Assembly (NCBI RefSeq): GCF_016026235.1
Contig: NZ_CP065613.1
Length of the DNA stretch: 64,000 bases
Strand: one strand, 5' to 3'
Origin: Escherichia coli
GTDB taxonomy: Bacteria > Pseudomonadota > Gammaproteobacteria > Enterobacterales > Enterobacteriaceae
How positions within the stretch are numbered: the first letter of the stretch is position 1; the number at the start of each line of letters is the position of its first letter. This document shows positions 27-31,174 of the stretch, piece after piece. The position numbers and the translations under genes are program-made. The notes beneath the pieces were generated by a model. That model was not told where the DNA came from. It saw only the letters and a program-made list of their open reading frames with translations, and did no database searches.

Positions 27-99
27 GTTATGTTCTGGCTCGTTGGCCTTTGGCAACGATTATCATATGAGATTGGGGCAATTACGCGCCCTCGTCAAA

Positions 100-3000: not shown

Positions 3001-3900
3001 GGGAATAGAGAACTGCCAGCCCGGATTTTCACGCGTAATATGCGCGGTCAGATTATCCACCGACAGCGTATGCGTTTGCTTCTCGCCCAACCAGCTGGCA
3101 CCGCCCTGTTTCAGCCAGACGTCACCGCCGGTTACATCGCCTTTGTCGATCGTCATCCAGCCTTCAAGGGAGAACTGTGCCGTTTCCAGCGCAATATTGT
3201 CCTGCATCCATTTACCGAGCCACGGCTTCAGGTCGATGTCATCCGCCTGGAGCCAGACGCGACCATTGCTTAACAACCCCTCATCATCGCGCAAATCCAT
3301 GCGCACCTGCATCACGCCGTGCTGTCCGGTAAGGCTGGAGAGGCTTACCAGGCCTTCCGCACGGTGTCGACGTGGATCGTTCAGCCAGGTGAGTTGTGGG
3401 ATCGCCAGCTCGGCGCGCTGACCGGATGGCGTCAGGAAACTGACTTCACTGTCGCGGAGATCGAAATGGTCAAATTGACGAAGAAACAGATCGCTGATGT
3501 GACTGGCTTCCAGACTGTCATCGCTACCACCGCTGGTGATAGGAGTGTTGGTGCGAAAGCGCAGCTGCCAGAAAGTGAGGTCGCGAAACTGCCAGCGCAT
3601 ATGTAACAGGCTCTGCCAGACATCCAGCGCCAGAGTAACGCGTTTAACCGAAAATTCGCCGCCATCTTTTAGTTCTGCACGGATGTCGTGTGCTTCAAGC
3701 GTCGGGCCAAAATTCTGCCAGCTGGCTGAGAGCTGACTGGCTTCAACCGGCATGCCAGTCGCGGATTCTATTTTGTTGAGGATTTCCGGACGCCAGGCGT
3801 CAAGATGCGGTAAAGCAATACGCAGGCCGCTAACCAGCAGGGCAGCGATCACAACGAGCGCGGCTCCAGTAAGCAGTAAAATCCCCGGCAATCGCCTCAC
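100..3900 (-). CDS. yhdP: AsmA-family inner membrane protein YhdP
   Basis: 1266 aa ORF; N-terminus MRRLPGILLLTGAALVV with a single TM segment; length and sequence match E. coli YhdP. Confidence 0.93.
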   Translation of the reverse strand: MRRLPGILLLTGAALVVIAALLVSGLRIALPHLDAWRPEILNKIESATGMPVEASQLSASWQNFGPTLEAHDIRAELKDGGEFSVKRVTLALDVWQSLLHMRWQFRDLTFWQLRFRTNTPITSGGSDDSLEASHISDLFLRQFDHFDLRDSEVSFLTPSGQRAELAIPQLTWLNDPRRHRAEGLVSLSSLTGQHGVMQVRMDLRDDEGLLSNGRVWLQADDIDLKPWLGKWMQDNIALETAQFSLEGWMTIDKGDVTGGDVWLKQGGASWLGEKQTHTLSVDNLTAHITRENPGWQFSIPDTRITMDGKPWPSGALTLAWIPEQDVGGKDNKRSDELRIRASNLELAGLEGIRPLAAKLSPALGDVWRSTQPSGKINTLALDIPLQAADKTRFQASWSDLAWKQWKLLPGAEHFSGTLSGSVENGLLTASMKQAKMPYETVFRAPLEIADGQATISWLNNDKGFQLDGRNIDVKAKAVHARGGFRYLQPANDEPWLGILAGISTDDGSQAWRYFPENLMGKDLVDYLSGAIQGGEADNATLVYGGNPQLFPYKHNEGQFEVLVPLRNAKFAFQPDWPALTNLDIELDFINDGLWMKTDGVNLGGVRASNLTAVIPDYSKEKLLIDADIKGPGKAVGPYFDETPLKDSLGATLQELQLDGDVNARLHLDIPLNGELVTAKGEVTLRNNSLFIKPLDSTLKNLSGKFSFINGDLQSEPLTASWFNQPLNVDFSTKEGAKAYQVAVNLNGNWQPAKTGVLPEAVNEALSGSVAWDGKVGIDLPYHAGATYNVELNGDLKNVSSHLPSPLAKPAGEPLAVNVKVDGNLNSFELTGQAGADNHFNSRWLLGQKLTLDRAIWAADSKTLPPLPEQSGVELNMPPMNGAEWLALFQKGAAESVGGAASFPQHITLRTPMLSLGNQQWNNLSIVSQPTANGTLVEAQGREINATLAMRNNAPWLANIKYLYYNPSMAKTRGDSTPSSPFPTTERINFRGWPDAQIRCTECWFWGQKFGRIDSDLTISGDTLTLTNGLIDTGFSRLTADGEWVNNPGNERTSLKGKLRGQKIDAAAEFFGVTTPIRQSSFNVDYDLHWRKAPWQPDEATLNGIIHTQLGKGEITEINTGHAGQLLRLLSVDALMRKLRFDFRDTFGEGFYFDSIRSTAWIKDGVMHTDDTLVDGLEADIAMKGSVNLVRRDLNMEAVVAPEISATVGVAAAFAVNPIVGAAVFAASKVLGPLWSKVSILRYHISGPLDDPQINEVLRQPRKEKAQ

Positions 3901-15259: not shown

Positions 15260-16700
15260 AGTAATTCTACCGCTGGTCGCCTATCTGGTGGTGGTGTTCG
15301 GTATCTCTGTTTATGCGATGCGTAAACGGAGCACCGGCACCTTCCTTAATGAGTATTTCCTCGGCAGCCGCTCTATGGGCGGTATTGTGCTGGCGATGAC
15401 GCTCACCGCGACTTATATCAGTGCCAGTTCGTTTATCGGCGGGCCTGGAGCTGCTTACAAATACGGCCTTGGCTGGGTATTGCTGGCGATGATTCAGCTT
15501 CCTGCAGTCTGGCTTTCACTCGGTATTCTCGGCAAGAAGTTTGCGATTCTTGCGCGCCGCTACAATGCAGTGACGCTGAACGATATGCTGTTTGCCCGCT
15601 ATCAGAGTCGTCTTTTGGTGTGGCTGGCGAGTTTGAGTTTGCTGGTCGCGTTTATTGGCGCGATGACCGTGCAGTTTATCGGCGGCGCGCGCCTGCTGGA
15701 AACCGCGGCGGGTATTCCTTATGAAACCGGGCTGCTGATTTTCGGTATCAGCATTGCGTTGTATACCGCCTTTGGTGGCTTTCGCGCCAGCGTGCTGAAC
15801 GACACCATGCAAGGGCTTGTGATGCTGATTGGCACCGTTGTGCTGCTTATTGGCGTGGTACATGCCGCTGGCGGCTTAAGCAACGCAGTACAGACCTTGC
15901 AAACCATCGATCCGCAACTGGTTACGCCACAAGGCGCTGACGATATTCTGTCGCCTGCCTTTATGACGTCGTTCTGGGTACTGGTGTGCTTTGGCGTTAT
16001 AGGCCTGCCGCATACTGCGGTGCGCTGTATCTCTTATAAAGACAGCAAAGCAGTACACCGGGGGATCATCATCGGTACGATTGTAGTCGCAATCCTGATG
16101 TTCGGTATGCACCTGGCCGGAGCCTTAGGTCGTGCAGTGATCCCCGATCTCACCGTACCGGATCTGGTGATCCCGACGTTAATGGTAAAAGTGCTGCCAC
16201 CGTTTGCTGCCGGGATCTTTCTGGCTGCACCTATGGCTGCGATCATGTCGACAATTAACGCCCAATTGCTACAAAGTTCCGCTACGATCATTAAAGATCT
16301 CTATCTGAATATCCGTCCGGATCAAATGCAAAACGAGACGCGTCTGAAGCGGATGTCGGCGGTAATTACGTTAGTTCTCGGCGCGTTGCTGCTGCTTGCC
16401 GCCTGGAAGCCGCCAGAAATGATCATCTGGCTGAATTTGCTGGCCTTCGGTGGGCTGGAAGCCGTTTTCCTGTGGCCGCTGGTGCTGGGTCTTTACTGGG
16501 AACGCGCCAACGCCAAAGGCGCGCTAAGTGCGATGATCGTTGGCGGCGTGCTGTATGCCGTACTCGCGACGCTGAATATTCAGTACCTGGGCTTCCACCC
16601 TATCGTGCCCTCGTTACTACTAAGTTTGCTGGCTTTCCTGGTCGGAAACCGTTTCGGTACATCCGTCCCGCAAGCTACCGTTTTGACTACTGATAAATAA
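15249..16700 (+). CDS. panF: Sodium/pantothenate symporter PanF
   Basis: 483 aa from [21 protein letters not shown]-family polytopic transporter; start overlaps yhdT. Confidence 0.92.
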
Positions 16701-16711
16701 AGAGTTTTGCC

Positions 16712-17593
16712 ATGCCTTGGATCCAACTGAAACTGAACACCACCGGCGCGAACGCGGAAGATCTTAGCGATGCGCTGATGGAAGCGGGTGCCGTTTCTAT
16801 CACTTTTCAGGATACCCACGATACGCCAGTATTTGAGCCGCTGCCGGGCGAAACGCGCCTGTGGGGCGACACCGATGTGATTGGTCTGTTCGACGCTGAA
16901 ACCGACATGAACGACGTGGTGGCGATTCTGGAAAACCATCCGCTGCTCGGTGCGGGCTTCGCGCATAAAATCGAACAACTGGAAGATAAAGACTGGGAGC
17001 GCGAATGGATGGATAATTTCCACCCGATGCGCTTTGGTGAACGACTGTGGATCTGCCCAAGCTGGCGTGATGTGCCGGACGAAAACGCCGTCAACGTGAT
17101 GTTAGACCCAGGGCTGGCGTTTGGTACGGGTACCCATCCAACCACATCTTTGTGCCTGCAATGGCTCGACAGCCTCGATTTAACCGGTAAAACGGTGATC
17201 GACTTTGGCTGCGGTTCCGGCATTCTGGCTATCGCAGCGCTGAAGCTTGGTGCAGCAAAAGCCATTGGTATTGATATCGATCCGCAGGCGATTCAGGCCA
17301 GCCGCGACAACGCCGAACGTAATGGTGTTTCTGAGCGTCTGGAACTCTACTTACCGAAAGATCAGCCAGAAGCGATGAAAGCCGACGTGGTGGTCGCTAA
17401 CATCCTCGCAGGCCCGTTACGTGAACTGGCACCGTTAATTAGCGTCCTGCCAGTTTCAGGCGGCTTACTGGGCCTTTCTGGTATTCTGGCAAGCCAGGCG
17501 GAGAGCGTTTGTGAAGCTTATGCCGATAGCTTCGCACTGGACCCGGTCGTGGAAAAAGAAGAGTGGTGCCGTATTACCGGTCGTAAGAATTAA
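16712..17593 (+). CDS. prmA: Ribosomal protein L11 methyltransferase
   Basis: 293 aa; SAM-binding motif [13 protein letters not shown]. Confidence 0.93.
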
Positions 17594-17853
17594 CCTTCGC
17601 ATCGCCGTAGGGTGACGCGGGGCGAAGTGCGAGCAAGCTCACAAAAGGCACGTAAATTTGCCGGTTATTTACGCAAATTTGCGTGCCAAAATTTTCATTC
17701 ATAAAGAAAAATTGAGAACTTACTCAAATTTCTTTGAGTGTAAATTTTAGTCACTATTTTCTAATATGATGATTTTTATGAGTAATTATCGCACCACGCT
17801 CATTTTAAATGCAATTCTTTGATCCATCTCAGAGGATTGGTCAAAGTTTGGCC

Positions 17854-17882
17854 TTTCATCTCGTGCAAAAAATGCGTAATAT
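17854..17882 (+). promoter_or_regulatory. dusB-fis operon promoter (-35 TTCATC, -10 TAATAT, GC-rich discriminator)
   Basis: tttcatc then 16-17 nt then taatat then acgccgcc about 40 nt upstream of dusB; AT-rich upstream region consistent with Fis autoregulatory sites. Confidence 0.5.
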
Positions 17883-17921
17883 ACGCCGCCTTGCAGTCAC
17901 AGTATGGTCATTTCTTAACTC

Positions 17922-18887
17922 ATGCGCATCGGACAATATCAGCTCAGAAATCGCCTGATCGCAGCGCCCATGGCTGGCATTACAGACAGACCTTTTCGGA
18001 CGTTGTGCTACGAGATGGGAGCCGGATTGACAGTATCCGAGATGATGTCTTCTAACCCACAGGTTTGGGAAAGCGACAAATCTCGTTTACGGATGGTGCA
18101 CATTGATGAACCCGGTATTCGCACCGTGCAAATTGCTGGTAGCGATCCGAAAGAAATGGCAGATGCAGCACGTATTAACGTGGAAAGCGGTGCCCAGATT
18201 ATTGATATCAATATGGGTTGCCCGGCTAAAAAAGTGAATCGCAAGCTCGCAGGTTCAGCCCTCTTGCAGTACCCGGATGTCGTTAAATCGATCCTTACCG
18301 AGGTCGTCAATGCAGTGGACGTTCCTGTTACCCTGAAGATTCGCACTGGCTGGGCACCGGAACACCGTAACTGCGAAGAGATTGCCCAACTGGCTGAAGA
18401 CTGTGGCATTCAGGCTCTGACCATTCATGGCCGTACACGCGCCTGTTTGTTCAATGGAGAAGCTGAGTACGACAGTATTCGGGCAGTTAAGCAGAAAGTT
18501 TCCATTCCGGTTATCGCGAATGGCGACATTACTGACCCGCTTAAAGCCAGAGCTGTGCTCGACTATACAGGGGCGGATGCCCTGATGATAGGCCGCGCAG
18601 CTCAGGGAAGACCCTGGATCTTTCGGGAAATCCAGCATTATCTGGACACTGGGGAGTTGCTGCCCCCACTGCCTTTGGCAGAGGTTAAGCGCTTGCTTTG
18701 CGCGCACGTTCGGGAACTGCATGACTTTTATGGTCCGGCAAAAGGGTACCGAATTGCACGTAAACACGTTTCCTGGTATCTCCAGGAACACGCTCCAAAT
18801 GACCAGTTTCGGCGCACATTCAACGCCATTGAGGATGCCAGCGAACAGCTGGAGGCGTTGGAGGCATACTTCGAAAATTTTGCGTAA
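17922..18887 (+). CDS. dusB: tRNA-dihydrouridine synthase B
   Basis: 321 aa; [29 protein letters not shown]-barrel Dus signature. Confidence 0.95.
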
Positions 18888-18912
18888 ACAGAAATAAAGA
18901 GCTGACAGAACT

Positions 18913-19209
18913 ATGTTCGAACAACGCGTAAATTCTGACGTACTGACCGTTTCTACCGTTAACTCTCAGGATCAGGTAACCCAAAAACCCCTGCGTGACT
19001 CGGTTAAACAGGCACTGAAGAACTATTTTGCTCAACTGAATGGTCAGGATGTGAATGACCTCTATGAGCTGGTACTGGCTGAAGTAGAACAGCCCCTGTT
19101 GGACATGGTGATGCAATACACCCGTGGTAACCAGACCCGTGCTGCGCTGATGATGGGCATCAACCGTGGTACGCTGCGTAAAAAATTGAAAAAATACGGC
19201 ATGAACTAA
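18913..19209 (+). CDS. fis: Nucleoid-associated protein Fis
   Basis: 98 aa [47 protein letters not shown]...; matches Fis. Confidence 0.98.
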
Positions 19210-19235
19210 TTCAGGTTAGCTAAATGCTTGATTAA

Positions 19236-19270
19236 AAAGGCGCTACTCGGCATGGGGAAGCGCCTTTTTT
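19236..19270 (+). terminator. Intrinsic terminator after fis
   Basis: Hairpin aggcgctactcggcatggggaagcgcct followed by tttttt. Confidence 0.7.
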
Positions 19271-19294
19271 ATAGGTGTCACAAAGGGAGTGACC

Positions 19295-20179
19295 ATGAGA
19301 ACAGGATGTGAACCGACCCGGTTTGGTAATGAAGCTAAGACCATTATTCACGGTGATGCGCTTGCCGAACTTAAAAAGATCCCCGCCGAAAGTGTCGATC
19401 TGATCTTTGCCGACCCACCATATAACATCGGTAAAAATTTTGATGGTCTGATCGAAGCCTGGAAAGAAGATCTGTTTATCGACTGGCTGTTTGAAGTGAT
19501 TGCAGAGTGCCACCGCGTTCTGAAAAAGCAGGGCAGCATGTACATCATGAACAGCACGGAAAACATGCCCTTTATCGATCTCCAGTGCCGCAAGCTTTTT
19601 ACCATCAAAAGTCGCATCGTCTGGTCATATGACAGTTCTGGAGTACAGGCGAAAAAACACTACGGCTCCATGTACGAACCCATCCTGATGATGGTGAAAG
19701 ACGCAAAGAACTACACATTCAACGGTGATGCTATTCTGGTAGAAGCCAAAACCGGATCGCAGCGCGCGTTGATCGATTATCGCAAAAATCCTCCACAGCC
19801 ATACAATCATCAAAAAGTACCGGGTAACGTCTGGGATTTTCCGCGCGTGCGTTATTTGATGGATGAATATGAGAACCACCCGACGCAAAAACCGGAAGCC
19901 TTACTGAAACGCATTATTCTCGCCTCTTCCAACCCAGGCGATATCGTTCTCGACCCGTTTGCCGGTAGCTTTACTACCGGTGCCGTAGCCGTCTCCAGCG
20001 GGCGAAAATTCATTGGTATTGAGATCAACAGCGAGTACATCAAAATGGGGCTTCGACGACTGGATGTCGCGTCACATTACTCCGCGGAGGAACTGGCGAA
20101 AGTGAAAAAAAGAAAGACGGGCAACCGGTCAAAACGATGTCGGGTTAGCGAAGTTGACCCCGATCTCATTGCAAAGTAA
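19295..20179 (+). CDS. yhdJ: DNA adenine (N6) methyltransferase YhdJ
   Basis: 294 aa; DPPY motif (IFADPPYNIG); SAM-dependent N6-adenine MTase family. Confidence 0.9.
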   Translation: MRTGCEPTRFGNEAKTIIHGDALAELKKIPAESVDLIFADPPYNIGKNFDGLIEAWKEDLFIDWLFEVIAECHRVLKKQGSMYIMNSTENMPFIDLQCRKLFTIKSRIVWSYDSSGVQAKKHYGSMYEPILMMVKDAKNYTFNGDAILVEAKTGSQRALIDYRKNPPQPYNHQKVPGNVWDFPRVRYLMDEYENHPTQKPEALLKRIILASSNPGDIVLDPFAGSFTTGAVAVSSGRKFIGIEINSEYIKMGLRRLDVASHYSAEELAKVKKRKTGNRSKRCRVSEVDPDLIAK

Positions 20180-20262
20180 AGGAAGTGTAAGCCTGGTTTT
20201 CAGATTATTCATTTCGTGTATATTTCCTGCCAGACTTGGTTAAACATACACAGGCTCAGGTA

Positions 20263-20442
20263 ATGATTCGCAAGTATTGGTGGCTCGTCGTTTTCGCTGT
20301 CTTCGTTTTTCTGTTTGATACTTTACTGATGCAGTGGATTGAACTGCTGACAACAGAAACAGACAAATGCCGTAATATGAACTCAGTTAATCCACTAAAA
20401 CTGGTTAACTGTGACGAACTGAATTTTCAGGACAGAATGTGA
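20263..20442 (+). CDS. yhdU: Small membrane protein YhdU
   Basis: 59 aa from MIRKYWWLVVFAVFVFLFDTLL; an alternative upstream ATG at 20236 would give 68 aa. Confidence 0.7.
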   Translation: MIRKYWWLVVFAVFVFLFDTLLMQWIELLTTETDKCRNMNSVNPLKLVNCDELNFQDRM

Positions 20443-20444
20443 AT

Positions 20445-21107
20445 TTACATGACACTTAATTCATTCGTTTGATGAATTAATTTCGTTATGTTTTCATCTG
20501 GCATGAACATTCTTAATACGTTATCGACCAGCGCGGGTGCTTGTTTATAAAGATCATAACCCGCCATATTCATTAACCAGTTTTGAACAATTCCGCTGAA
20601 GGCACCATCAATAATAATCATCACAACATCTAAATCGAGGTTATTTGCTACACAACCTTGTTGCTGACACGCCTGCAATACTTCGCGGAGAGTCTGCGGA
20701 TTAAAGCCCATCTTTTCGCGTATCACTCCCTCGGCCAGCATCTCATCATTAAATTCACATTTGTGATATAAGATTTTCAGCAACGCCTGCTGGCGGGGAA
20801 TTTTGGCAATATATTGCAAGCCGACAATCAATTTTTCACGCAATTGTTGAAACGGGTCATGCTCTAATCCAGCCGTCAAGTGTTCCTGGATTAACTCCCG
20901 CAATGAAGGCTGTTGCAACCACATCTCATTAAACAGTTGAGTCTTGTTTTCGAAGTGCCAGTAGATAGCGCCACGCGTAACGTTAGCGGCATCGGCAATG
21001 TCGTTGAGCGTCGTCTTGCTTACGCCATGTTGCGCAAACTGGGCGATGGCAGTTTCAATCAGTTCTTGCTGGGTCTTCAGAGCTTCGGCTTTGGTTCTTT
21101 TTGCCAT
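20445..21107 (-). CDS. acrS: TetR-family repressor AcrS (EnvR)
   Basis: 220 aa; N-terminal HTH (TLNDIADAANVTRGAIYWHF); divergent from acrEF. Confidence 0.92.
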   Translation of the reverse strand: MAKRTKAEALKTQQELIETAIAQFAQHGVSKTTLNDIADAANVTRGAIYWHFENKTQLFNEMWLQQPSLRELIQEHLTAGLEHDPFQQLREKLIVGLQYIAKIPRQQALLKILYHKCEFNDEMLAEGVIREKMGFNPQTLREVLQACQQQGCVANNLDLDVVMIIIDGAFSGIVQNWLMNMAGYDLYKQAPALVDNVLRMFMPDENITKLIHQTNELSVM

Positions 21108-21505
21108 GATTAATTATTCAGGAAATAAATATATTCGACACAGGGTGAGAAAATAGCGAAGGTTAATCTATCATCTAATGTGTATTTATACGAGAGGGTA
21201 ACATTGAGTTGCTATAAATCGTCAAATAAATAATATATATTATTTACCTAAAATACATTCGCCACATGAATATATATTTCAATTTACGAGGTTTTAATTC
21301 TGCCTCTTTCAACCCGCGTCAAAATAAAACAGTAGAATATTAATCTTTTTTTGTGTTTATGTGCCTTGAGACGCCAGTATTCATAACTATTCCTTACATC
21401 GACGAATGATAATTTGTAGGATAGCGAACTGTATTTTTCTTTCTGCGAGTTAACGCGTTGCCTTTCTGGGTAAATAACGCGCTTTTGGTTTTTTGAGGAA
21501 TAGTA

Positions 21506-22663
21506 ATGACGAAACATGCCAGGTTTTTCCTCCTGCCCTCCTTTATTCTGATCTCCGCGGCTTTAATCGCCGGTTGTAACGATAAGGGAGAAGAGAAAGC
21601 TCACGTCGGTGAACCGCAGGTTACCGTTCATATTGTGAAAACGGCCCCGTTAGAAGTTAAGACTGAATTACCAGGCCGCACCAATGCTTACCGTATAGCC
21701 GAAGTTCGCCCACAGGTTAGCGGGATCGTACTGAATCGTAATTTCACTGAAGGCAGCGATGTACAAGCAGGCCAGTCCCTGTACCAGATCGATCCCGCGA
21801 CCTATCAGGCAAATTATGACAGCGCGAAAGGCGAACTGGCGAAAAGTGAAGCCGCCGCCGCCATCGCGCATTTGACGGTAAAACGTTACGTTCCGCTCGT
21901 GGGTACGAAATACATCAGCCAGCAGGAGTACGACCAGGCCATTGCTGATGCTCGCCAGGCCGATGCCGCCGTGATTGCCGCAAAAGCCACAGTCGAAAGC
22001 GCTCGCATCAATCTCGCTTATACCAAAGTGACTGCGCCAATTAGCGGACGTATCGGCAAATCGACCGTGACCGAAGGCGCTCTTGTCACTAATGGGCAAA
22101 CGACTGAACTGGCGACTGTCCAGCAGCTCGATCCTATCTACGTTGATGTGACCCAATCCAGCAACGATTTTATGAGGCTGAAGCAATCCGTAGAGCAAGG
22201 AAATTTGCATAAGGAAAACGCCACCAGCAACGTAGAGTTGGTCATGGAAAACGGTCAAACCTATCCCCTGAAAGGTACGCTGCAATTCTCCGATGTGACC
22301 GTTGATGAAAGCACCGGCTCCATAACCCTACGTGCTGTCTTCCCTAACCCGCAACATACGCTTTTGCCGGGTATGTTTGTGCGTGCACGGATTGATGAAG
22401 GCGTCCAACCTGACGCCATTCTTATCCCGCAACAAGGCGTTAGCCGCACACCGCGTGGTGATGCAACCGTGCTGATTGTTAACGATAAAAGTCAGGTTGA
22501 AGCGCGCCCTGTCGTTGCCAGTCAGGCGATTGGCGATAAATGGTTGATTAGTGAAGGACTGAAATCTGGCGATCAAGTCATTGTCAGCGGCCTGCAAAAA
22601 GCGCGTCCGGGAGAGCAGGTTAAAGCCACTACCGATACCCCCGCAGATACTGCATCGAAGTAA
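21506..22663 (+). CDS. acrE: RND efflux periplasmic adaptor (membrane fusion) lipoprotein AcrE
   Basis: 385 aa; lipoprotein signal (LIAGC) then MFP domains. Confidence 0.93.
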   Translation: MTKHARFFLLPSFILISAALIAGCNDKGEEKAHVGEPQVTVHIVKTAPLEVKTELPGRTNAYRIAEVRPQVSGIVLNRNFTEGSDVQAGQSLYQIDPATYQANYDSAKGELAKSEAAAAIAHLTVKRYVPLVGTKYISQQEYDQAIADARQADAAVIAAKATVESARINLAYTKVTAPISGRIGKSTVTEGALVTNGQTTELATVQQLDPIYVDVTQSSNDFMRLKQSVEQGNLHKENATSNVELVMENGQTYPLKGTLQFSDVTVDESTGSITLRAVFPNPQHTLLPGMFVRARIDEGVQPDAILIPQQGVSRTPRGDATVLIVNDKSQVEARPVVASQAIGDKWLISEGLKSGDQVIVSGLQKARPGEQVKATTDTPADTASK

Positions 22664-22674
22664 GGTAATCTGAC

Positions 22675-25600
22675 ATGGCAAACTTTTTTATTCGACGACC
22701 AATATTTGCATGGGTGCTGGCCATTATTCTGATGATGGCGGGCGCACTGGCGATCCTACAATTGCCCGTCGCTCAGTATCCAACCATTGCACCGCCTGCG
22801 GTTTCTGTTTCAGCAAACTATCCGGGTGCTGATGCGCAGACCGTGCAGGATACGGTGACGCAGGTTATCGAACAGAATATGAATGGTATCGATAACCTGA
22901 TGTATATGTCCTCCACCAGCGATTCCGCCGGTAGCGTGACAATTACCCTTACCTTCCAGTCCGGGACCGATCCTGATATCGCGCAAGTGCAGGTGCAGAA
23001 CAAACTCCAGCTCGCCACGCCGTTGCTGCCGCAGGAGGTTCAGCAGCAGGGGATCAGTGTTGAAAAGTCCAGTAGCAGCTATTTGATGGTGGCGGGCTTT
23101 GTCTCTGATAACCCAGACACCACACAGGACGATATCTCGGACTATGTGGCCTCTAACGTTAAAGATACGCTTAGCCGTCTGAATGGCGTCGGTGACGTAC
23201 AGCTTTTCGGCGCACAATATGCGATGCGTATCTGGCTGGACGCCGATCTGCTAAACAAATATAAACTGACACCGGTTGATGTGATTAACCAGTTGAAGGT
23301 ACAGAACGATCAGATCGCTGCCGGACAGTTGGGCGGAACGCCAGCGTTACCAGGGCAACAGTTGAATGCCTCGATTATTGCTCAGACGCGGTTAAAAAAT
23401 CCGGAAGAATTCGGCAAAGTGACCCTGCGCGTAAACAGTGACGGCTCGGTGGTACGCCTGAAAGATGTCGCACGGGTTGAACTTGGCGGTGAAAACTATA
23501 ACGTTATCGCTCGCATCAACGGAAAACCGGCGGCAGGTCTGGGTATTAAGCTGGCAACTGGTGCGAATGCTCTCGATACCGCGAAAGCCATTAAGGCAAA
23601 ACTGGCGGAATTACAGCCATTCTTCCCGCAGGGAATGAAGGTTCTCTACCCTTATGACACCACGCCATTCGTCCAGCTTTCTATTCACGAAGTGGTAAAA
23701 ACACTGTTCGAAGCTATTATGCTGGTGTTCCTGGTGATGTATCTGTTCTTGCAGAATATGCGAGCAACGCTGATCCCCACCATTGCGGTACCCGTGGTGT
23801 TGTTAGGGACGTTTGCCATCCTCGCCGCTTTTGGTTACTCCATCAACACACTAACGATGTTCGGGATGGTGCTTGCCATCGGGCTGCTCGTCGATGATGC
23901 GATAGTGGTGGTGGAGAACGTCGAGCGCGTGATGATGGAGGATAAGCTCCCGCCAAAAGAAGCGACGGAAAAATCAATGTCGCAAATCCAGGGCGCACTG
24001 GTGGGTATCGCGATGGTGCTGTCAGCGGTATTTATTCCGATGGCATTCTTCGGCGGTTCTACTGGGGCAATTTATCGCCAGTTCTCTATCACCATCGTTT
24101 CGGCAATGGCGCTTTCTGTTCTGGTGGCATTGATTCTTACCCCTGCGTTATGTGCAACACTGCTCAAACCCACCTCAGCTGAGCATCACGAAAATAAGGG
24201 TGGTTTCTTCGGCTGGTTTAATACCACCTTCGATCATAGCGTTAACCACTACACCAACAGCGTCGGCAAAATCCTCGGTTCCACAGGACGATATTTACTG
24301 ATCTATGCGCTGATTGTTGCAGGAATGGTGGTGTTGTTTTTACGTCTTCCGTCTTCCTTCTTACCTGAAGAGGATCAGGGTGTCTTTCTGACCATGATTC
24401 AGTTACCCGCTGGCGCGACGCAAGAGCGGACGCAAAAAGTGTTGGATCAAGTGACGGATTACTATCTGAAGAACGAGAAAGCAAACGTTGAAAGTGTCTT
24501 TACGGTTAACGGCTTTAGCTTCAGCGGCCAGGCACAAAACGCCGGTATGGCCTTCGTCAGTCTGAAACCGTGGGAAGAGCGTAGTGGTGACGAAAACAGT
24601 GCGGAAGCGGTAATCCATCGTGCCAAAATGGAGTTGGGCAAGATCCGCGACGGTTTTGTCATTCCATTCAATATGCCAGCCATTGTTGAACTGGGCACGG
24701 CAACGGGTTTCGACTTTGAGTTAATTGATCAGGCTGGGCTGGGTCACGATGCCCTAACCCAGGCCCGTAACCAGTTGCTTGGTATGGCGGCGCAACATCC
24801 TGCCAGCTTAGTCAGCGTGCGCCCTAATGGCCTGGAAGACACCGCGCAGTTTAAACTGGAAGTTGACCAGGAAAAGGCGCAGGCATTAGGTGTTTCACTT
24901 TCTGACATCAATCAGACCATTTCAACGGCGCTGGGTGGGACTTACGTTAACGACTTCATCGACCGTGGTCGCGTGAAAAAGGTGTATGTTCAGGCGGATG
25001 CCAAATTCCGTATGCTGCCAGAAGATGTCGATAAACTTTATGTCCGCAGCGCCAACGGCGAAATGGTGCCATTCTCGGCCTTTACCACTTCACATTGGGT
25101 GTATGGCTCTCCGCGACTGGAACGCTACAACGGTCTGCCGTCAATGGAGATTCAGGGGGAAGCCGCGCCAGGAACCAGTTCCGGCGATGCCATGGCGTTG
25201 ATGGAAAACCTTGCGTCAAAATTACCTGCGGGCATTGGTTATGACTGGACGGGTATGTCGTATCAGGAACGCTTATCGGGAAACCAGGCTCCCGCTCTGG
25301 TAGCAATTTCCTTTGTGGTTGTTTTCCTGTGCCTTGCTGCACTCTATGAAAGCTGGTCAATTCCTGTCTCGGTTATGTTGGTAGTGCCGTTAGGGATTGT
25401 CGGCGTGCTACTGGCGGCAACACTCTTTAATCAAAAAAATGACGTCTACTTTATGGTGGGCTTGCTAACGACAATTGGCTTGTCGGCCAAAAACGCTATT
25501 TTGATTGTTGAGTTCGCTAAAGATCTCATGGAGAAAGAGGGTAAAGGTGTTGTTGAAGCGACACTGATGGCAGTACGTATGCGTCTGCGTCCTATCCTGA

Positions 25601-25779
25601 TGACCTCTCTCGCCTTTATTCTCGGCGTATTACCGCTAGCTATCAGTAACGGTGCCGGCAGTGGCGCGCAGAACGCTGTGGGTATCGGGGTAATGGGAGG
25701 AATGGTCTCTGCAACGTTGCTGGCAATCTTCTTCGTACCGGTGTTCTTTGTGGTGATCCGCCGTTGCTTTAAAGGATAA
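22675..25779 (+). CDS. acrF: RND multidrug efflux transporter AcrF
   Basis: 1034 aa; [23 protein letters not shown]; 12-TM RND permease. Confidence 0.95.
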
Positions 25780-26031
25780 ATCAGAAACATAAAGGCGCTT
25801 TCGGGTGCCTTTATTATTTCCAGTGAAACCCATAAAAATTAATAAGATATTCTTCTGCTCACTCTTTAAAAGCTTTCTATAGTTCCCGCTCCCTTCACTA
25901 TTTTTACAATTCACATAATTTGTCATTATTCATTCCGCAAGATTTATAACCTCCGGTGATAAAATGGCATTCAGCTCGTTAATAAGAGAGTTAACTTATT
26001 AAGCGTTAGCGTTTATTACTGAGGTAACACC

Positions 26032-26253
26032 ATGAAAAGATTAATTCCTGTGGCATTGCTCACCGCATTGCTGGCGGGCTGTGCTCACGATTCGCCCTGC
26101 GTTCCGGTTTATGACGATCAGGGTCGTCTGGTTCACACCAATACCTGTATGAAAGGCACGACTCAGGATAACTGGGAAACGGCTGGGGCTATTGCTGGCG
26201 GGGCAGCGGCTGTTGCTGGCCTGACGATGGGGATCATCGCTCTGTCGAAATAA
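26032..26253 (+). CDS. yhdV: Small lipoprotein YhdV
   Basis: 73 aa; lipobox LLAGC; Gly/Ala-rich C-terminal hydrophobic segment. Confidence 0.8.
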   Translation: MKRLIPVALLTALLAGCAHDSPCVPVYDDQGRLVHTNTCMKGTTQDNWETAGAIAGGAAAVAGLTMGIIALSK

Positions 26254-26479
26254 CTGAACAGGGCGCGGAGTTTCGCGCTCTGTTTAACGATACAGTATCT
26301 TTACATAAGATAAAATATTGCTATATTCTGCTGGCTAATTCTCTACTGATTTAGCATGTTATATCGCGTTATTTCGCTGCTTTCGAAATAACGCATCAAT
26401 TTAACTTTCACACTTCCCACCAGAAATATACTCACGCTAACAATCATTATTCTGCTTAGTAAAACACGCGTAAATATTT

Positions 26480-26498
26480 TGCGCCAAAATGTGGCGCA
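26480..26498 (+). promoter_or_regulatory. Palindrome tgcgccaaaatgtggcgca, candidate NtrC-type enhancer site
   Basis: Near-perfect inverted repeat about 100 bp upstream of the sigma54-like promoter; resembles the TGCACC-N5-GGTGCA class. Confidence 0.35.
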
Positions 26499-26587
26499 TG
26501 TTTCATTTTCGCACCATTGCGGGGCGCTGTTTTTATTATTTCCTGTCTACACTCAGCTTATTGCGACGCGAAATCGGGCGCAAAAGC

Positions 26588-26603
26588 TGGCACTACTTTT
26601 GCT
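26588..26603 (+). promoter_or_regulatory. Sigma54-type promoter (-24 TGGCAC / -12 TTGCT) upstream of yhdWXYZ
   Basis: tggcactacttttgct matches the TGGCAC-N5-TTGC(A/T) consensus with correct spacing, about 80 nt upstream of the yhdW ATG. Confidence 0.55.
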
Positions 26604-26683
26604 TATAAGAGGATGGCCACAGACAGGTAAAAGACGTTTCCCAAACGTCCTATAACGATAATTTTCGCCTCACAGGAAGCATT

Positions 26684-27698
26684 ATGAAAAAGATGATGAT
26701 AGCCCGCCAGCGTGCTGCTTGCCGTTGCAAATCAGGCGCATGCTGGCGCGACGCTTGATGCCGTTCAGAAAAAAGGTTTTGTGCAATGCGGGATCAGTGA
26801 TGGATTACCTGGGTTCTCTTATGCCGATGCAGACGGTAAGTTTTCAGGTATTGATGTTGATGTTTGTCGTGGTGTTGCCGCTGCTGTATTTGGTGACGAC
26901 ACGAAAGTGAAATATACCCCACTCACAGCAAAAGAACGCTTCACGGCTTTACAGTCAGGGGAAGTGGATTTGCTCTCCCGTAATACGACCTGGACTTCAT
27001 CTCGCGACGCCGGGATGGGAATGGCATTTACTGGCGTCACTTATTACGACGGCATTGGCTTCCTGACGCACGATAAAGCGGGGCTAAAAAGCGCGAAAGA
27101 ACTGGATGGCGCTACCGTCTGTATTCAGGCGGGTACTGATACCGAACTCAACGTCGCCGACTATTTCAAGGCAAACAATATGAAGTACACACCAGTGACT
27201 TTCGATCGTTCTGACGAATCAGCGAAGGCACTGGAATCCGGTCGCTGCGATACGCTGGCCTCGGATCAGTCGCAACTGTATGCCCTGCGCATCAAATTAA
27301 GCAACCCGGCTGAATGGATTGTCTTACCGGAGGTTATCTCTAAAGAACCGCTTGGGCCGGTAGTTCGTCGTGGCGATGATGAATGGTTCTCGATTGTACG
27401 CTGGACGCTTTTCGCCATGCTAAATGCTGAAGAGATGGGCATCAATTCCCAGAACGTCGATGAAAAAGCGGCTAATCCAGCAACGCCTGATATGGCACAT
27501 CTGCTGGGTAAAGAAGGCGATTACGGCAAGGATCTGAAGTTGGATAATAAATGGGCCTATAACATCATCAAACAGGTGGGTAACTACTCGGAAATTTTTG
27601 AGCGTAACGTAGGTTCAGAAAGCCCGCTGAAAATTAAACGTGGGCAAAATAATCTCTGGAATAACGGCGGTATTCAGTACGCACCGCCCGTGCGTTAA
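26684..27698 (+). pseudogene. yhdW: yhdW, polar amino acid ABC transporter periplasmic binding protein; 5' frameshift separates the signal-peptide start from the body
   Basis: ATG at 26684 (MKKMMIA...) runs 24 codons to a TGA; the 328 aa body (26712..27698) is in the +1 frame and begins mid signal peptide (LLAVANQAHA|GATLD). Confidence 0.6.
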
Positions 27699-27765
27699 GT
27701 CGGTGTGAGGTAACGAGCGTCGCTACGGCGGCGCTCTCTTCAGCGTTATGCTTTCCGAGGTTTCT

Positions 27766-28947
27766 ATGTCTCATCGCCGCTCAACCGTTAAAGGCTCACT
27801 CTCTTTTGCCAACCCTACGGTTCGCGCCTGGTTATTCCAGATCCTTGCCGTTGTTGCTGTTGTCGGCATTGTTGGTTGGTTATTTCACAACACTGTTACG
27901 AATCTCAATAATCGTGGCATTACTTCAGGTTTTGCCTTTCTGGATCGCGGCGCTGGCTTCGGTATTGTCCAGCATTTGATCGATTACCAGCAGGGCGACA
28001 CCTACGGACGCGTTTTTATTGTCGGCTTACTCAATACGCTACTGGTTTCTGCATTGTGTATTGTGTTCGCTTCTGTTTTGGGCTTCTTTATCGGTCTGGC
28101 GAGACTTTCGGATAACTGGCTGCTACGAAAGCTTTCCACAATTTATATTGAGATCTTCCGTAATATTCCCCCGCTGCTGCAAATCTTCTTCTGGTACTTT
28201 GCCGTGTTGCGCAATTTGCCCGGACCACGCCAGGCTGTGAGCGCGTTTGATCTGGCCTTTTTGAGCAATCGTGGGCTTTATATTCCGTCACCGCAGCTGG
28301 GAGACGGATTTATTGCGTTTATCCTGGCTGTTGTTATGGCTATAGTCCTTTCTGTTGGACTATTCCGCTTTAATAAAACATACCAGATAAAGACCGGACA
28401 GCTGCGCCGCACCTGGCCCATCGCCGCAGTGTTGATCATCGGTTTGCCTTTACTGGCGCAATGGCTTTTTGGCGCAGCACTACACTGGGATGTCCCAGCC
28501 CTACGAGGCTTTAACTTCCGCGGCGGGATGGTTTTAATTCCTGAACTGGCAGCCTTAACGCTGGCACTTTCGGTTTATACATCTGCATTTATCGCCGAGA
28601 TTATCCGCGCTGGGATCCAGGCAGTGCCTTATGGTCAACATGAAGCGGCTCGGTCACTGGGATTACCCAACCCGGTTACGCTACGCCAGGTCATTATTCC
28701 CCAGGCACTGCGGGTGATTATTCCACCGTTAACCAGCCAGTATCTCAACATCGTCAAAAACTCCTCTCTTGCCGCCGCTATTGGCTATCCCGATATGGTT
28801 TCGCTGTTTGCTGGCACCGTGCTGAACCAGACGGGGCAAGCCATCGAGACGATAGCCATGACCATGTCGGTCTATCTGATTATCAGCCTGACTATCTCGC
28901 TGCTGATGAATATCTATAACCGCCGCATCGCGATCGTGGAACGCTAA
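27766..28947 (+). CDS. yhdX: ABC transporter permease YhdX
   Basis: 393 aa from MSHRRSTVKGSLSF; polytopic permease with ABC TMD (EAA-like loop). Confidence 0.88.
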   Translation: MSHRRSTVKGSLSFANPTVRAWLFQILAVVAVVGIVGWLFHNTVTNLNNRGITSGFAFLDRGAGFGIVQHLIDYQQGDTYGRVFIVGLLNTLLVSALCIVFASVLGFFIGLARLSDNWLLRKLSTIYIEIFRNIPPLLQIFFWYFAVLRNLPGPRQAVSAFDLAFLSNRGLYIPSPQLGDGFIAFILAVVMAIVLSVGLFRFNKTYQIKTGQLRRTWPIAAVLIIGLPLLAQWLFGAALHWDVPALRGFNFRGGMVLIPELAALTLALSVYTSAFIAEIIRAGIQAVPYGQHEAARSLGLPNPVTLRQVIIPQALRVIIPPLTSQYLNIVKNSSLAAAIGYPDMVSLFAGTVLNQTGQAIETIAMTMSVYLIISLTISLLMNIYNRRIAIVER

Positions 28948-28953
28948 GGAGTC

Positions 28954-30060
28954 ATGATGACAAAAGTATTGCTGTCTCATCCCTCGCGCCCGGCGAGCCA
29001 TAACTCAAGCCGCGCGATGGTGTGGGTGCGAAAAAATCTGTTCTCCAGCTGGAGCAATAGCCTGCTGACTATTGGCTGCATATGGTTGATGTGGGAACTG
29101 ATCCCACCGTTGCTGAACTGGGCATTTTTGCAGGCTAACTGGGTTGGCTCAACGCGTGCCGACTGCACAAAAGCCGGTGCCTGTTGGGTCTTCATCCACG
29201 AACGATTTGGTCAGTTTATGTATGGACTTTACCCACACGACCAACGCTGGCGAATTAACCTGGCATTACTGATTGGCCTTGTGTCAATCGCACCAATGTT
29301 CTGGAAAATACTCCCGCATCGCGGTCGCTATATTGCGGTCTGGGCAGTGATTTACCCACTGATTGTCTGGTGGCTGATGTATGGCGGTTTTTTTGCTCTT
29401 GAGCGGGTTGAAACCCGGCAATGGGGCGGGCTGACGCTAACTTTAATTATTGCATCAGTTGGGATTGCGGGGGCGCTACCGTGGGGGATCTTACTGGCGT
29501 TAGGTCGCCGCTCCCATATGCCGATTGTGCGTATCTTATCGGTCATTTTTATCGAGTTCTGGCGCGGCGTACCGCTGATTACCGTATTGTTTATGTCTTC
29601 GGTCATGCTGCCTTTGTTTATGGCAGAAGGCACCAGTATCGACAAACTGATCCGCGCGCTGGTTGGCGTGATCCTGTTTCAGTCAGCATATGTTGCGGAA
29701 GTCGTGCGAGGTGGATTACAGGCGCTGCCTAAAGGGCAATATGAAGCGGCAGAGTCGCTGGCGTTGGGTTACTGGAAAACTCAGGGGCTGGTTATTCTGC
29801 CACAGGCGTTGAAGCTGGTAATTCCTGGGCTGGTAAATACCATCATCGCACTCTTCAAAGATACCAGCCTGGTGATCATTATCGGGTTGTTCGATCTTTT
29901 CAGTAGCGTTCAGCAGGCAACCGTTGATCCCGCCTGGTTGGGTATGTCGACGGAAGGGTATGTTTTCGCCGCGCTGATCTACTGGATCTTCTGTTTCAGC
30001 ATGTCGCGCTATAGCCAGCATCTGGAAAAACGTTTTAATACCGGGCGTACACCGCATTGA
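28954..30060 (+). CDS. yhdY: ABC transporter permease YhdY
   Basis: About 367 aa polytopic permease; true start may be the second Met. Confidence 0.88.
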
Positions 30061-30067
30061 GGACACT

Positions 30068-30826
30068 ATGAGCCAAATTTTACTACAACCTGCTAACGCG
30101 ATGATTACGCTGGAAAACGTCAATAAATGGTATGGACAATTCCATGTTTTGAAAAATATAAATTTAATCGTGCAACCGGGCGAACGGATCGTTCTGTGTG
30201 GCCCTTCAGGTTCCGGTAAATCGACAACCATTCGTTGTATTAATCATCTGGAAGAACATCAACAGGGACGGATCGTGGTAGATGGCATCGAACTTAATGA
30301 AGATATCCGCAATATTGAGCGCGTCCGGCAGGAAGTGGGAATGGTCTTTCAGCATTTCAATCTCTTCCCTCATCTGACCGTTCTACAGAACTGTACCCTG
30401 GCACCGATTTGGGTACGCAAGATGCCAAAGAAAGAGGCTGAAGCTCTGGCGATGCATTACCTTGAGCGGGTGAGAATTGCCGAACATGCGCATAAGTTTC
30501 CCGGACAGATTTCAGGTGGTCAGCAGCAACGCGTTGCCATTGCGCGCTCGCTGTGTATGAAGCCGAAAATTATGTTGTTTGATGAGCCCACATCGGCGCT
30601 CGATCCGGAGATGGTGAAAGAGGTGCTGGATACGATGATTGGGCTGGCGCAATCGGGTATGACAATGTTGTGTGTAACCCATGAGATGGGGTTTGCGCGA
30701 ACCGTCGCTGACCGGGTGATTTTTATGGATCGGGGCGAAATAGTGGAGCAAGCTGCACCGGATGAGTTTTTTGCGCATCCTAAGTCAGAGCGTACGAGGG
30801 CATTTTTATCGCAGGTAATCCATTAA
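30068..30826 (+). CDS. yhdZ: ABC transporter ATP-binding protein YhdZ
   Basis: 252 aa; Walker [10 protein letters not shown], signature LSGGQQQR, Walker [12 protein letters not shown]. Confidence 0.93.
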
Positions 30827-30847
30827 TTGAATGTTCGTTCGAAAAGC

Positions 30848-30875
30848 ATAAAGGCCATCCTTTCGGATGGCCTTT
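30848..30875. terminator. rrnD distal terminator (T2-like), bidirectional hairpin also placed to terminate yhdZ
   Basis: aaaggccatcctttcggatggccttt, same architecture as the rrnB T2 hairpin. Confidence 0.7.
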
Positions 30876-31010
30876 CGCTTGATTTGATGTCTGGCAGTTT
30901 ATGGCGGGCGTCCTGCCCGCCACCCTCCGGGCCGTTGCTTCGCAACATTCAAATCAGCTCCCGGCGGATTTGTCCTGGTTGGGAGAGTGTTCACCGACAA
31001 ACAACAGATA

Positions 31011-31050
31011 AAACAAAAGGCCCAGTCTTCCGACTGAGCCTTTTGTTTTA
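31011..31050 (-). terminator. rrnD T1 terminator after the distal 5S gene
   Basis: aaaacaaaaggcccagtcttccgactgagccttttgtttt hairpin immediately 3' of rrfF on the minus strand. Confidence 0.75.
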
Positions 31051-31054
31051 TTTG

Positions 31055-31174
31055 ATGTCTGGCAGTTCCCTACTCTCGCATGGGGAGACCCCACACTACC
31101 ATCGGCGCTACGGCGTTTCACTTCTGAGTTCGGCATGGGGTCAGGTGGGACCACCGCGCTACTGCCGCCAGACA
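31055..31174 (-). rRNA. rrfF: 5S rRNA, distal copy of rrnD
   Basis: Reverse complement matches the E. coli 5S sequence over 120 nt with a few substitutions. Confidence 0.93.

Follow-up and report, generated by a model that had tools for sequence, protein, structure and literature searches.

A probable recent, clone-specific pseudogene of yhdW with an intact promoter and intact yhdXYZ in a non-K-12 strain of Escherichia coli

The window analysed here, a stretch of 64,000 nucleotides from a non-K-12 strain of E. coli, carries the gene order acrEF-yhdV-yhdWXYZ-rrnD. Within it, yhdW is split between two open reading frames on the plus strand. The first (26684–26758, +) starts at the ATG at 26684 behind a good leader (AGGAAG at 26674–26679) and encodes MKKMMIARQRAACRCKSGACWRDA, i.e., the seven authentic codons MKKMMIA and 17 out-of-frame codons, and it ends after 24 codons with the TGA at 26756–26758. 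The second comprises the body of the binding protein, residues 12–341 (26705–27698, +), for which the mechanically called open reading frame runs from the GTG at 26712 to 27698 and opens with (M/V)LLAVANQAHAGATLD. Since this start lies 28 nt 3' of the ATG, the body is in the +1 frame. Both the early stop and the displaced body had been described in a sequence-only reading of the window, and both are borne out.

Alignment with the intact allele of strain 120899 (341 aa; WP_000738579.1) and with K-12 places the lesion at the junction 26704/26705 (+), where the 11 bp ACACTGGCTGC are missing; an equivalent placing has CACACTGGCTG absent between 26703 and 26704. The deleted stretch corresponds to nt 22–32 of the gene, codons 8–11. 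The sequence-only reading had anticipated a small indel, which proves to be this one deletion, although codons 7–10 had been guessed for its position. Residues 15–341, which follow GTG 26712, are 100% identical to WP_000738579.1, and the collinearity and identity of the body with the intact protein indicate that there is no second indel. Compared with intact orthologues, the frame is broken and no compensating change is present. The intact 5' coding DNA of yhdW folds unusually well (z -3.2). The deleted segment overlaps a small AGCCA/TGGCT stem, and a hairpin-mediated origin of the deletion is a matter of speculation.

The three genes downstream are uninterrupted, as the sequence-only reading had stated. 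They encode the permeases YhdX (27766–28947, +; 393 aa) and YhdY (28957–30060, +; 367 aa) and the ATPase YhdZ (30068–30826, +; 252 aa), all protein-identical to those of strain FDAARGOS_943. Two BPD_transp_1 permeases and one ABC_tran ATPase, intact and co-oriented downstream of yhdW, constitute the layout of a Type I ABC importer. The yhdW body matches Pfam SBP_bac_3 (PF00497; E value 3e-16), and residues 22–341 of YhdW align with the binding protein of Brucella ovis (PDB: 4Z9N; E value 5e-122). The orthologues of YhdW are 341–342 aa in length, share 73–94% identity, and are named in their sources either [quoted passage not shown] or AapJ. Judged by these similarities, the yhdW body is an amino-acid binding protein of the AapJ/BztA type within the PAAT family. 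In the literature, YhdW of Citrobacter rodentium is reported to bind asparagine, while the main importer of asparagine in that organism is another system.

Whether a binding protein could still be exported depends on the 5' end of the gene. The intact E. coli allele and the orthologues from 10 other taxa all start at the upstream ATG, which excludes 26712 as the normal start of the protein, and each of them has a signal peptide of 24–25 aa of the form MKK-hydrophobic-AHA|G, with the conserved MKK and about 16 hydrophobic residues. The alignment with 4Z9N begins at query residue 22, near the predicted cleavage site. Alignment to intact orthologues, which the sequence-only reading had proposed, thus both located the indel and removed the alternative that the mature protein normally begins at 26712. 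A Sec signal peptide is encoded by neither of the two yhdW reading frames of the window. The predicted product of GTG 26712 begins MLLAVANQAHA and misses 13 of the 24 signal-peptide residues.

It might be argued that a functional binding protein is nevertheless made, whether translation begins at GTG 26712 or undergoes a programmed +1 frameshift ahead of the TGA at 26756. This GTG opens a reading frame of 328 codons, annotated as a protein by gene callers, and the body has suffered no further damage, an observation explained by how recent the deletion is. The start itself is poorly equipped for this role: the Shine-Dalgarno pairing energy is +0.5 kcal/mol for GTG 26712 and -4.3 kcal/mol for the true ATG, and a product started at the GTG would lack a basic N-region, its hydrophobic core being only about 5 residues long. 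As for frameshifting, the codons preceding the stop (GCT TGA T) are no known +1 slippery context, and a shift before the TGA would also bypass the hydrophobic core. We regard a functional product by either route as very improbable. Low-level starts at GTG 26712 or GTG 26781 may occur, and their product would remain in the cytoplasm. The contention of the sequence-only reading that a properly exported binding protein would be missing unless an internal start were used is therefore upheld, the internal GTG having no Shine-Dalgarno sequence and having lost most of the signal peptide. On the sequence evidence, we infer that no functional YhdW is produced.

The same junction was found in five other assemblies, comprising four NCBI genome assemblies (GCA_900449985.1, GCA_002466675.1, GCA_001907535.1 and GCA_001907565.1) and the assembly of one public sequencing run (SRR17652784). 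All five belong to one clone, differing from the window by 0–2 SNPs over the 7–15 kb compared, and one of them differs also by a deletion in acrF. The NCTC assembly of this clone, GCA_900449985.1, agrees with the window throughout 21 kb apart from three single C residues in the rRNA operon; these are absent from the window, whose assembly may therefore hold some single-base errors. That the 11 bp are in truth present and the gene intact, their absence being an artefact of sequencing or assembly, is nonetheless hardly credible. The loss affects 11 bp of non-repetitive sequence that is not a homopolymer, so that no homopolymer slip is at issue, and the junction is identical in the five other assemblies. 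Both observations lead us to regard the lesion as real.

The distribution of the allele is narrow. A 44-mer spanning the window junction has no match in 5,426 complete RefSeq genomes of E. coli. The nearest relative, FDAARGOS_943, has an intact yhdW without the 11-bp deletion, and across about 15 kb (16001–31100) it is separated from the window by only 2 SNPs and the deletion itself. Because the body does not differ from intact YhdW, nor the YhdXYZ proteins from those of FDAARGOS_943, the deletion is, as far as sequence comparison can date it, recent, and it is specific to this clone.

Upstream of yhdW, a -24/-12 element, TGGCACTACTTTTGCT, is present at 26588–26603 (+), 80 nt from its 3' end to the ATG. 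With one additional base, the sigma54 promoter yhdWp (26587–26603, +) reads CTGGCAC-TACTT-TTGCT, with GG at -24 and GC at -12. The exact pattern TGGCAC-N5-TTGCW has this single match in the window; since 0.14 matches would be expected by chance and 13 of 100 shuffled sequences contained at least one, the match by itself is weak evidence. The element is solid owing to its position, its conservation and published ChIP data. In K-12, the 17-mer CTGGCACTACTTTTGCT is the sigma54 ChIP-seq site OS34, assigned to yhdW (Bonocora 2015; PMC4591121), and the 17-mer of the window is identical to it. From 26406 to the ATG, a single base, at 26577, differs from K-12. Conservation across genera was assessed from published motif scores, given in the supplementary table of PMC4591121, and from six fetched loci, among which TGGCAY-N5-TTGCT is invariant in the six genera and the remainder of the aligned region is 52% identical. 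Among sigma54 promoters, yhdWp has been called a perfect match to the consensus, and its reporter activity was among the lowest of 12 promoters tested (PMC7045595). Both the description of the -24/-12 element as a textbook example and the view that the promoter is apparently intact hold good. By its identity to the K-12 sequence and the K-12 literature, the yhdWp of the window is expected to bind sigma54 and to support enhancer-dependent transcription.

Further upstream, the perfect 7-nt arms of the palindrome TGCGCCA-AAATG-TGGCGCA (26480–26498, +), about 110 bp 5' of the -12 element, form a candidate enhancer (UAS). Each half-site agrees at 6 of 7 positions with the NtrC consensus TGCACCA/TGGTGCA, and the spacer is 5 nt instead of 3. 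The earlier suggestion of a palindrome resembling an NtrC site is thus acceptable for the half-sites but not for the spacing, which is 2 bp too long. The palindrome is identical in K-12, and 5 of the 6 aligned genera show a recognisable right half (TTTTG-G/T-x-GCA). It was flagged also by a simple terminator scan, and no gene ends just 5' of it. A second candidate NtrC-type site, CGCACCATTGCGGGGCG (26510–26526, +), has the canonical 6-N5-6 arrangement with 3 mismatches to TGCACC-N5-GGTGCA. Matches of this quality number 26 in the window against 31.8 expected, so that taken alone the site is not above chance; in the alignment of genera, its counterpart in a related genome (L026) is GGCACCAATACTGTGCA, with 2 mismatches, and Enterobacter has the site in nearly identical form. 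In K-12 under nitrogen starvation, an NtrC ChIP-seq peak of limited resolution was assigned to yhdWXYZ (Brown 2014; PMC4066584), and the table of NtrC targets in that work cites an earlier gene-expression analysis in support of yhdWXYZ, which is the basis for its induction by nitrogen limitation. Considering these reports together with the sequence identity to K-12, the yhdW operon of the window is probably under NtrC control, with both upstream sites as candidates only.

Transcription of yhdW would start near 26614, according to the 70-nt figure for yhdW in a K-12 table, and the 5' UTR would then extend over 26614–26683 (+). It includes a CAGACAG motif (26620–26626), the hairpin GACGTTTcccAAACGTC (26633–26649), which occupies the same relative position in each genus examined, and the Shine-Dalgarno sequence. 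RNAalifold returned no consensus structure for the 5' UTR, the alignment being poor. In the long stretch between yhdV and yhdW, Rfam identified no known RNA; its matches elsewhere in the window were limited to rRNA and tRNA genes, StyR-44 and the alpha-operon leader.

A pseudogene of yhdW is already known from K-12 (bioRxiv 10.64898/2026.05.04.722672), where PGAP annotates the gene as "frameshifted", and the window holds a new allele arising through another mutation. In K-12, the loss of A68 changes GCGCATGCT to GCGCTGCT, while the window keeps GCGCATGCT. The K-12 junction 44-mer occurs in 355 complete genomes and the window allele in none. That the window might carry the K-12 allele was considered and rejected, as the lesion is another one and the strain backgrounds are about 1.5% apart; by this sequence comparison the two lesions are independent.

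These two are, moreover, not the only lesions at the 5' end of the gene. At least 9 independent ones were found: the 11-bp deletion of the window, the loss of A68 in K-12, an IS3-associated deletion in strain 99-3311 and, in other backgrounds, a 7-bp deletion accompanied by a change of the neighbouring base, deletions of 13 bp (two different ones), 2 bp and 1 bp, and an insertion of 1 bp. A further apparent lesion, in L007, was rejected, its run of N's being a scaffold gap. That the first 40 nt, where seven distinct lesions lie, are a hot spot of mutation was considered too, but it is unsupported given that the look-up is biased towards this region and that the lesions are rare.

Such recurrence raises the question of whether loss of the binding protein is adaptive, converting YhdXYZ into a binding-protein-independent transporter that lowers the intracellular concentration of antibiotic. 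Deletion of yhdWXYZ renders K-12 more sensitive to lomefloxacin and mecillinam, and no such sensitisation follows in C. rodentium, which has the complete system (bioRxiv 10.64898/2026.05.04.722672). In addition, yhdXYZ is intact in the lesion strains wherever the contig permits a check, but this would fit recent lesions equally well. The count of lesions is itself subject to ascertainment bias, because the look-up by the exact 328-aa product could return only lesions 5' of the GTG. This product was found on 22 contigs, compared with at least 1000 for the intact sequence. Over the first 101 nt, deviations at two or more positions were seen in no more than about 45 of the roughly 5,040 complete non-K-12 genomes. 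Each lesion is confined to a single clone, as recent mutations of neutral or mildly deleterious effect would be, and the complete system contributes to host colonisation in both C. rodentium and UPEC (bioRxiv 10.64898/2026.05.04.722672). We therefore consider it unlikely that loss of YhdW with retention of the promoter and YhdXYZ is a recurrent, selected switch affecting antibiotic accumulation, of which this clone would be the second natural example.

In our assessment, yhdW of the window is very probably a recently formed, clone-specific pseudogene behind an intact promoter and in front of intact yhdXYZ. The 11-bp deletion in the signal-peptide codons shifts the frame, such that ribosomes starting at the authentic ATG would end after 24 residues; as the 330-codon body has no usable start or export signal, no periplasmic binding protein would result. 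NtrC should still activate the operon under nitrogen limitation, and ZraR may act on it as well, according to published work on K-12, in which ZraSR control of the yhd operon and a predicted second promoter 5' of yhdX were described (bioRxiv 10.64898/2026.05.04.722672). Rho-dependent polarity, acting where yhdW RNA would go untranslated for about 1 kb, could lower the expression of yhdXYZ from yhdWp; the K-12 literature and the sequence identity suggest that these genes would still be expressed. The cell would then possess the membrane and ATPase core of a polar amino-acid importer of the AapJQMP/BztABCD type, minus its binding protein, and high-affinity uptake via YhdWXYZ would be expected to be lost. 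The term "non-functional transporter" may be too strong, since the work on K-12 suggests that YhdXYZ has a phenotype without a binding protein.

The lesion is an ordinary strain-specific pseudogene and reveals no new mechanism. Its practical consequence is that the 328-aa product annotated as "amino acid ABC transporter substrate-binding protein" deserves a pseudogene flag in this clone, and that work on nitrogen scavenging, on the uptake of asparagine or on host colonisation should regard the strain as YhdW-negative. Alongside K-12, the clone is a second and independently arisen case in nature in which YhdXYZ is kept without the binding protein, here in a non-K-12 background, and with the near-isogenic, intact FDAARGOS_943 it forms a pair in which the claimed change in YhdXYZ function upon loss of the binding protein could be tested.

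Among known systems, yhdWXYZ corresponds to the general L-amino-acid ABC importers of the PAAT family, AapJQMP of Rhizobium leguminosarum and BztABCD of Rhodobacter capsulatus and Brucella, with one binding protein, two long permeases and one ATPase. Regulation by nitrogen limitation is common to all of them (bioRxiv 10.64898/2026.05.04.722672), whereas the broken binding-protein gene sets the window apart. With the Ntr-regulon promoters (glnAp2, glnHp2, argTp, glnKp and astCp2), yhdWp shares the consensus -24/-12 element, candidate enhancer elements about 60–125 bp upstream and, in K-12, binding of the region in vivo by NtrC and sigma54 (PMC4066584, PMC4591121). It differs from them in that its clearest palindrome has a 19-bp instead of the 17-bp NtrC geometry, and in the reported responsiveness of the yhd operon to ZraSR (bioRxiv 10.64898/2026.05.04.722672). 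The yhdW of K-12 (b3268) offers the closest parallel, having the same gene, operon and sigma54 promoter, a frameshift likewise within the signal-peptide codons, and retained yhdXYZ; the K-12 lesion, however, is the loss of a single base at the signal-peptidase site, yielding a 78-aa product, as opposed to the loss of nt 22–32 and a 24-aa product in the window. The yhd operon of Shigella represents another lineage-specific loss of the transporter in the E. coli/Shigella species complex (bioRxiv 10.64898/2026.05.04.722672), but there IS insertions, rearrangements and lesions affect all four genes, while in the window a single small deletion is restricted to yhdW.

The acrE-acrF-yhdV-yhdW-yhdX-yhdY-yhdZ-rrnD locus of E. 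coli was identified in the window by ORF listing and similarity searches. K-12 was ruled out as the strain, MG1655 being ~1.5% divergent over the 9 kb compared. The closest complete RefSeq genome is that of strain FDAARGOS_943 (NZ_CP065615.1), with 99.9% identity over 40 kb and differences mostly within the rRNA operon. Relative to the NCTC assembly of the same clone (L012), the window is missing three single C residues of the 23S and 16S rRNA genes, after 32990, 34002, and 36196. FDAARGOS_943 has two of the three, and the differences are probably residual single-base errors of one assembly or the other. FDAARGOS_943 also carries an IS5-family insertion with a frameshifted transposase (L011 40114–40957), which the window lacks at the equivalent position (~40088, between smg and dprA).

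The sequence AGGAAG precedes the yhdW ATG at 26684, where a 24-codon ORF, MKKMMIARQRAACRCKSGACWRDA, opens and ends at a TGA (26756–26758), and the body of the binding protein is encoded in the +1 frame relative to this ATG by the ORF at 26712–27698. Both features agree with the sequence-only reading, which had described a good leader, a stop after 24 codons, and a small indel near codons 7–10. Alignment with the intact allele of strain 120899 (341 aa, WP_000738579.1) and with K-12 reduces the frameshift to one difference, the absence of 11 bp (ACACTGGCTGC) between 26704 and 26705; the indel corresponds to gene nt 22–32, in codons 8–11. The site contains no homopolymer. The N-terminus of intact YhdW is MKKMMIATLAAASVLLAVANQAHA/GATLD, and no residue after the GTG at 26712 differs from the intact protein (100% identity). 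Over ~15 kb (16001–31100), only the yhdW deletion and 2 SNPs separate the window from FDAARGOS_943, in which yhdW is intact. Because the body is identical to the intact protein and SNPs relative to an intact relative are so few, the lesion is very recent, and secondary decay is absent.

The protein might normally have started at 26712, but its orthologues all begin with a full signal peptide. They are 341–342 aa in Enterobacter, Dickeya, Yersinia, Lonsdalea, Affinibrenneria, Serratia, Pseudomonas, and a genome labelled Salmonella, and all share a 24–25-residue signal peptide of one form. The structure of the Brucella ovis homologue (4Z9N) aligns from YhdW query residue 22, near the predicted cleavage site. 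The product from GTG 26712 would start MLLAVANQAHA, with only ~5 hydrophobic residues and no basic N-region. No anti-Shine-Dalgarno pairing was found for the 20 nt upstream of this GTG (+0.5 kcal/mol), as compared with scores of -4.3 for the true ATG and -3.4 for the next in-frame GTG at 26781. Rescue of YhdW by +1 frameshifting before the premature stop is opposed by the local sequence, GCT TGA T, which is no known context for such an event, and a +1 shift at the stop would leave out the hydrophobic core anyway. It had been proposed that a properly exported binding protein would be lacking unless an internal start is used; as this start has neither Shine-Dalgarno pairing nor a full signal peptide, we infer that exported YhdW is not made in this strain. 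The genome labelled Salmonella enterica (L026; AP025685.1, GCA_022846635.1, 4.26 Mb) contains yhdV-yhdWX with the sigma54 motif, and its YhdW is 89% identical to that of E. coli. The yhd operon has been reported as absent from Salmonella (10.64898/2026.05.04.722672), and this small genome may be mislabelled or misclassified.

The textbook -24/-12 element noticed upstream, TGGCACTACTTTTGCT (26588–26603, + strand), is the sole exact TGGCAC-N5-TTGCW match in the window; as 0.14 would be expected by chance, the match alone is weak evidence. Its identification is borne out by conservation and by data from K-12. TGGCAY-N5-TTGCT is invariant in six of six genera (the window and five orthologous loci) within a region only 52% identical, and from 26406 to the ATG a single base, at 26577, differs from K-12. 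The 17-mer CTGGCACTACTTTTGCT, identical in K-12, is the sigma54 ChIP-seq site OS34, assigned to yhdW, and the supplementary table of the same study gives high motif scores 5' of the orthologue in Citrobacter, Yokenella, Enterobacter, Cedecea, Cronobacter, Pectobacterium, and Dickeya (PMC4591121). NtrC ChIP-seq in nitrogen-starved K-12 lists a yhdWXYZ peak, with earlier expression data cited (PMC4066584), and yhdWp has been described as a sigma54 promoter with a perfect -12/-24 consensus and weak reporter activity (PMC7045595). ZraSR is also reported to regulate the yhd operon, and a second promoter was predicted before yhdX (10.64898/2026.05.04.722672). A sigma70-like candidate with an extended -10 (TTTACA, 16 nt, TG-TATATT; 10/12 matches), a consensus match only, is located at 26300–26327 (+), ~290 bp before the sigma54 promoter in the 430 bp that separate yhdV from yhdW. 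The 5' UTR of all six genera includes a conserved CAGAYRG motif 16–40 nt past the -12 element (window 26620–26649; L023–L027), followed after 11–14 nt by a hairpin of 5–8 bp whose sequence is different in each; that of the window is GACGTTTcccAAACGTC (-6.1 kcal/mol). RNAalifold found no structure on an automatic alignment of these UTRs.

The palindrome previously likened to an NtrC site, TGCGCCA-N5-TGGCGCA (26480–26498), has perfect 7-nt arms, each matching the NtrC half-site (TGCACCA/TGGTGCA) at six of seven positions, but with a 5-nt spacer in place of one of 3 nt it does not fit the 17-bp NtrC dyad. A second candidate, CGCACCATTGCGGGGCG (26510–26526), has the correct geometry with 3 mismatches; such matches are no better than chance in the window (26 seen, 31.8 expected). 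It aligns with GGCACCAATACTGTGCA in a related genome, and the palindrome's right half can be recognised in five of six genera. A candidate enhancer may be placed somewhere within 26476–26530, its elements being putative sites for NtrC and perhaps for ZraR.

Searches with the exact 328-aa product of the GTG ORF, which can return only lesions upstream of GTG 26712, found the same junction in GCA_900449985.1 (4.56-Mb contig), GCA_002466675.1, GCA_001907535.1, GCA_001907565.1, and run SRR17652784, all with 0–2 SNPs relative to the window over the 7–15 kb compared. A junction common to five near-identical assemblies indicates that the deletion is a marker of a single clone. A 44-mer spanning it was found in none of the 5,426 complete RefSeq E. 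coli genomes. SRR17652784 has a second 11-bp deletion, TTATGTGCAAC, in acrF (window 24148–24158), which breaks this gene into two ORFs (498 and 482 aa). In the unrelated strain 120899 (L001 776–3880), an internal stop (Q619*) interrupts acrF, which carries a pseudogene annotation, and the gene is also split in assembly SRR30180795 (L005/L017); the acrEF efflux pump seems to be commonly lost in the present sample of strains.

The K-12 gene, annotated as 'frameshifted' in RefSeq and described as a pseudogene (10.64898/2026.05.04.722672), carries a different lesion, a missing A at nt 68 within GCGCATGCT, whose junction was found in 355 of the 5,426 genomes. Six further independent lesions 5' of the GTG came from the product look-up, in backgrounds 1–2.7% divergent from the window: deletions of 7 bp (next to a base change), 13 bp (two different ones), 2 bp, and 1 bp, and an insertion of 1 bp. 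In the complete genome of strain 99-3311 (L022, NZ_CP101310.1), an IS3-associated deletion has removed acrF, yhdV, and the promoter and first codons of yhdW. An IS3-family element lies directly 3' of acrE in this strain, and RefSeq annotates a 336-aa binding protein from an internal ATG, now without the sigma54 promoter. The occurrence of several independent 5' lesions in different backgrounds would fit an adaptive 'functional switch' by YhdW loss, as conceived in the same preprint. We assign this a low probability: the recurrence looks striking, yet it is an ascertainment effect of a search that returns only lesions upstream of the GTG. The 328-aa product was found on 22 contigs, as against at least 1000 for the intact sequence, the intact first 101 nt were matched with at most one difference in 5,372 of 5,397 complete genomes (a count that includes K-12), and every lesion is restricted to one clone. 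Given this rarity and restriction, recent neutral or mildly deleterious mutations are favoured. In the intact allele, the DNA coding for the signal peptide (L011 26685–26760; window 26684–26749) has an unusually stable single-strand fold (-20.2 kcal/mol, z -3.2), owing to an 11–13-bp imperfect inverted repeat (nt 33–43 with nt 64–76) and a small AGCCA/TGGCT stem. The long repeat has both the K-12 A68 loss and the above 1-bp deletion (L021) in its arms, and the 11-bp deletion shares bases with the small stem; any part played by this fold in the origin of the deletions is speculative.

The sigma54 promoter should remain active under nitrogen limitation, and the transcript would encode the 24-residue peptide and, beyond an untranslated yhdW stretch of ~1 kb, the products of yhdXYZ. 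The downstream genes had been read as intact, and YhdX, YhdY, and YhdZ are indeed identical to the FDAARGOS_943 proteins. With its binding protein missing, the importer should lose high-affinity substrate delivery. Expression of yhdXYZ may be affected by both Rho polarity and an internal promoter, and its remaining level is inferred from K-12, where, despite an analogous early frameshift, mutants of yhdX, yhdY, and yhdZ still show phenotypes and effects on antibiotic accumulation remain (10.64898/2026.05.04.722672). The value of the allele lies chiefly in getting the annotation right and in offering a natural genotype in which to test binding-protein-independent function. Earlier publications already place YhdW among the AapJ/BztA-type binding proteins of PAAT-family ABC importers and describe both the sigma54/NtrC promoter and, in K-12 and Shigella, a yhdW pseudogene next to intact yhdXYZ; what is new here is an allele in another lineage, for which a near-isogenic intact relative is available.
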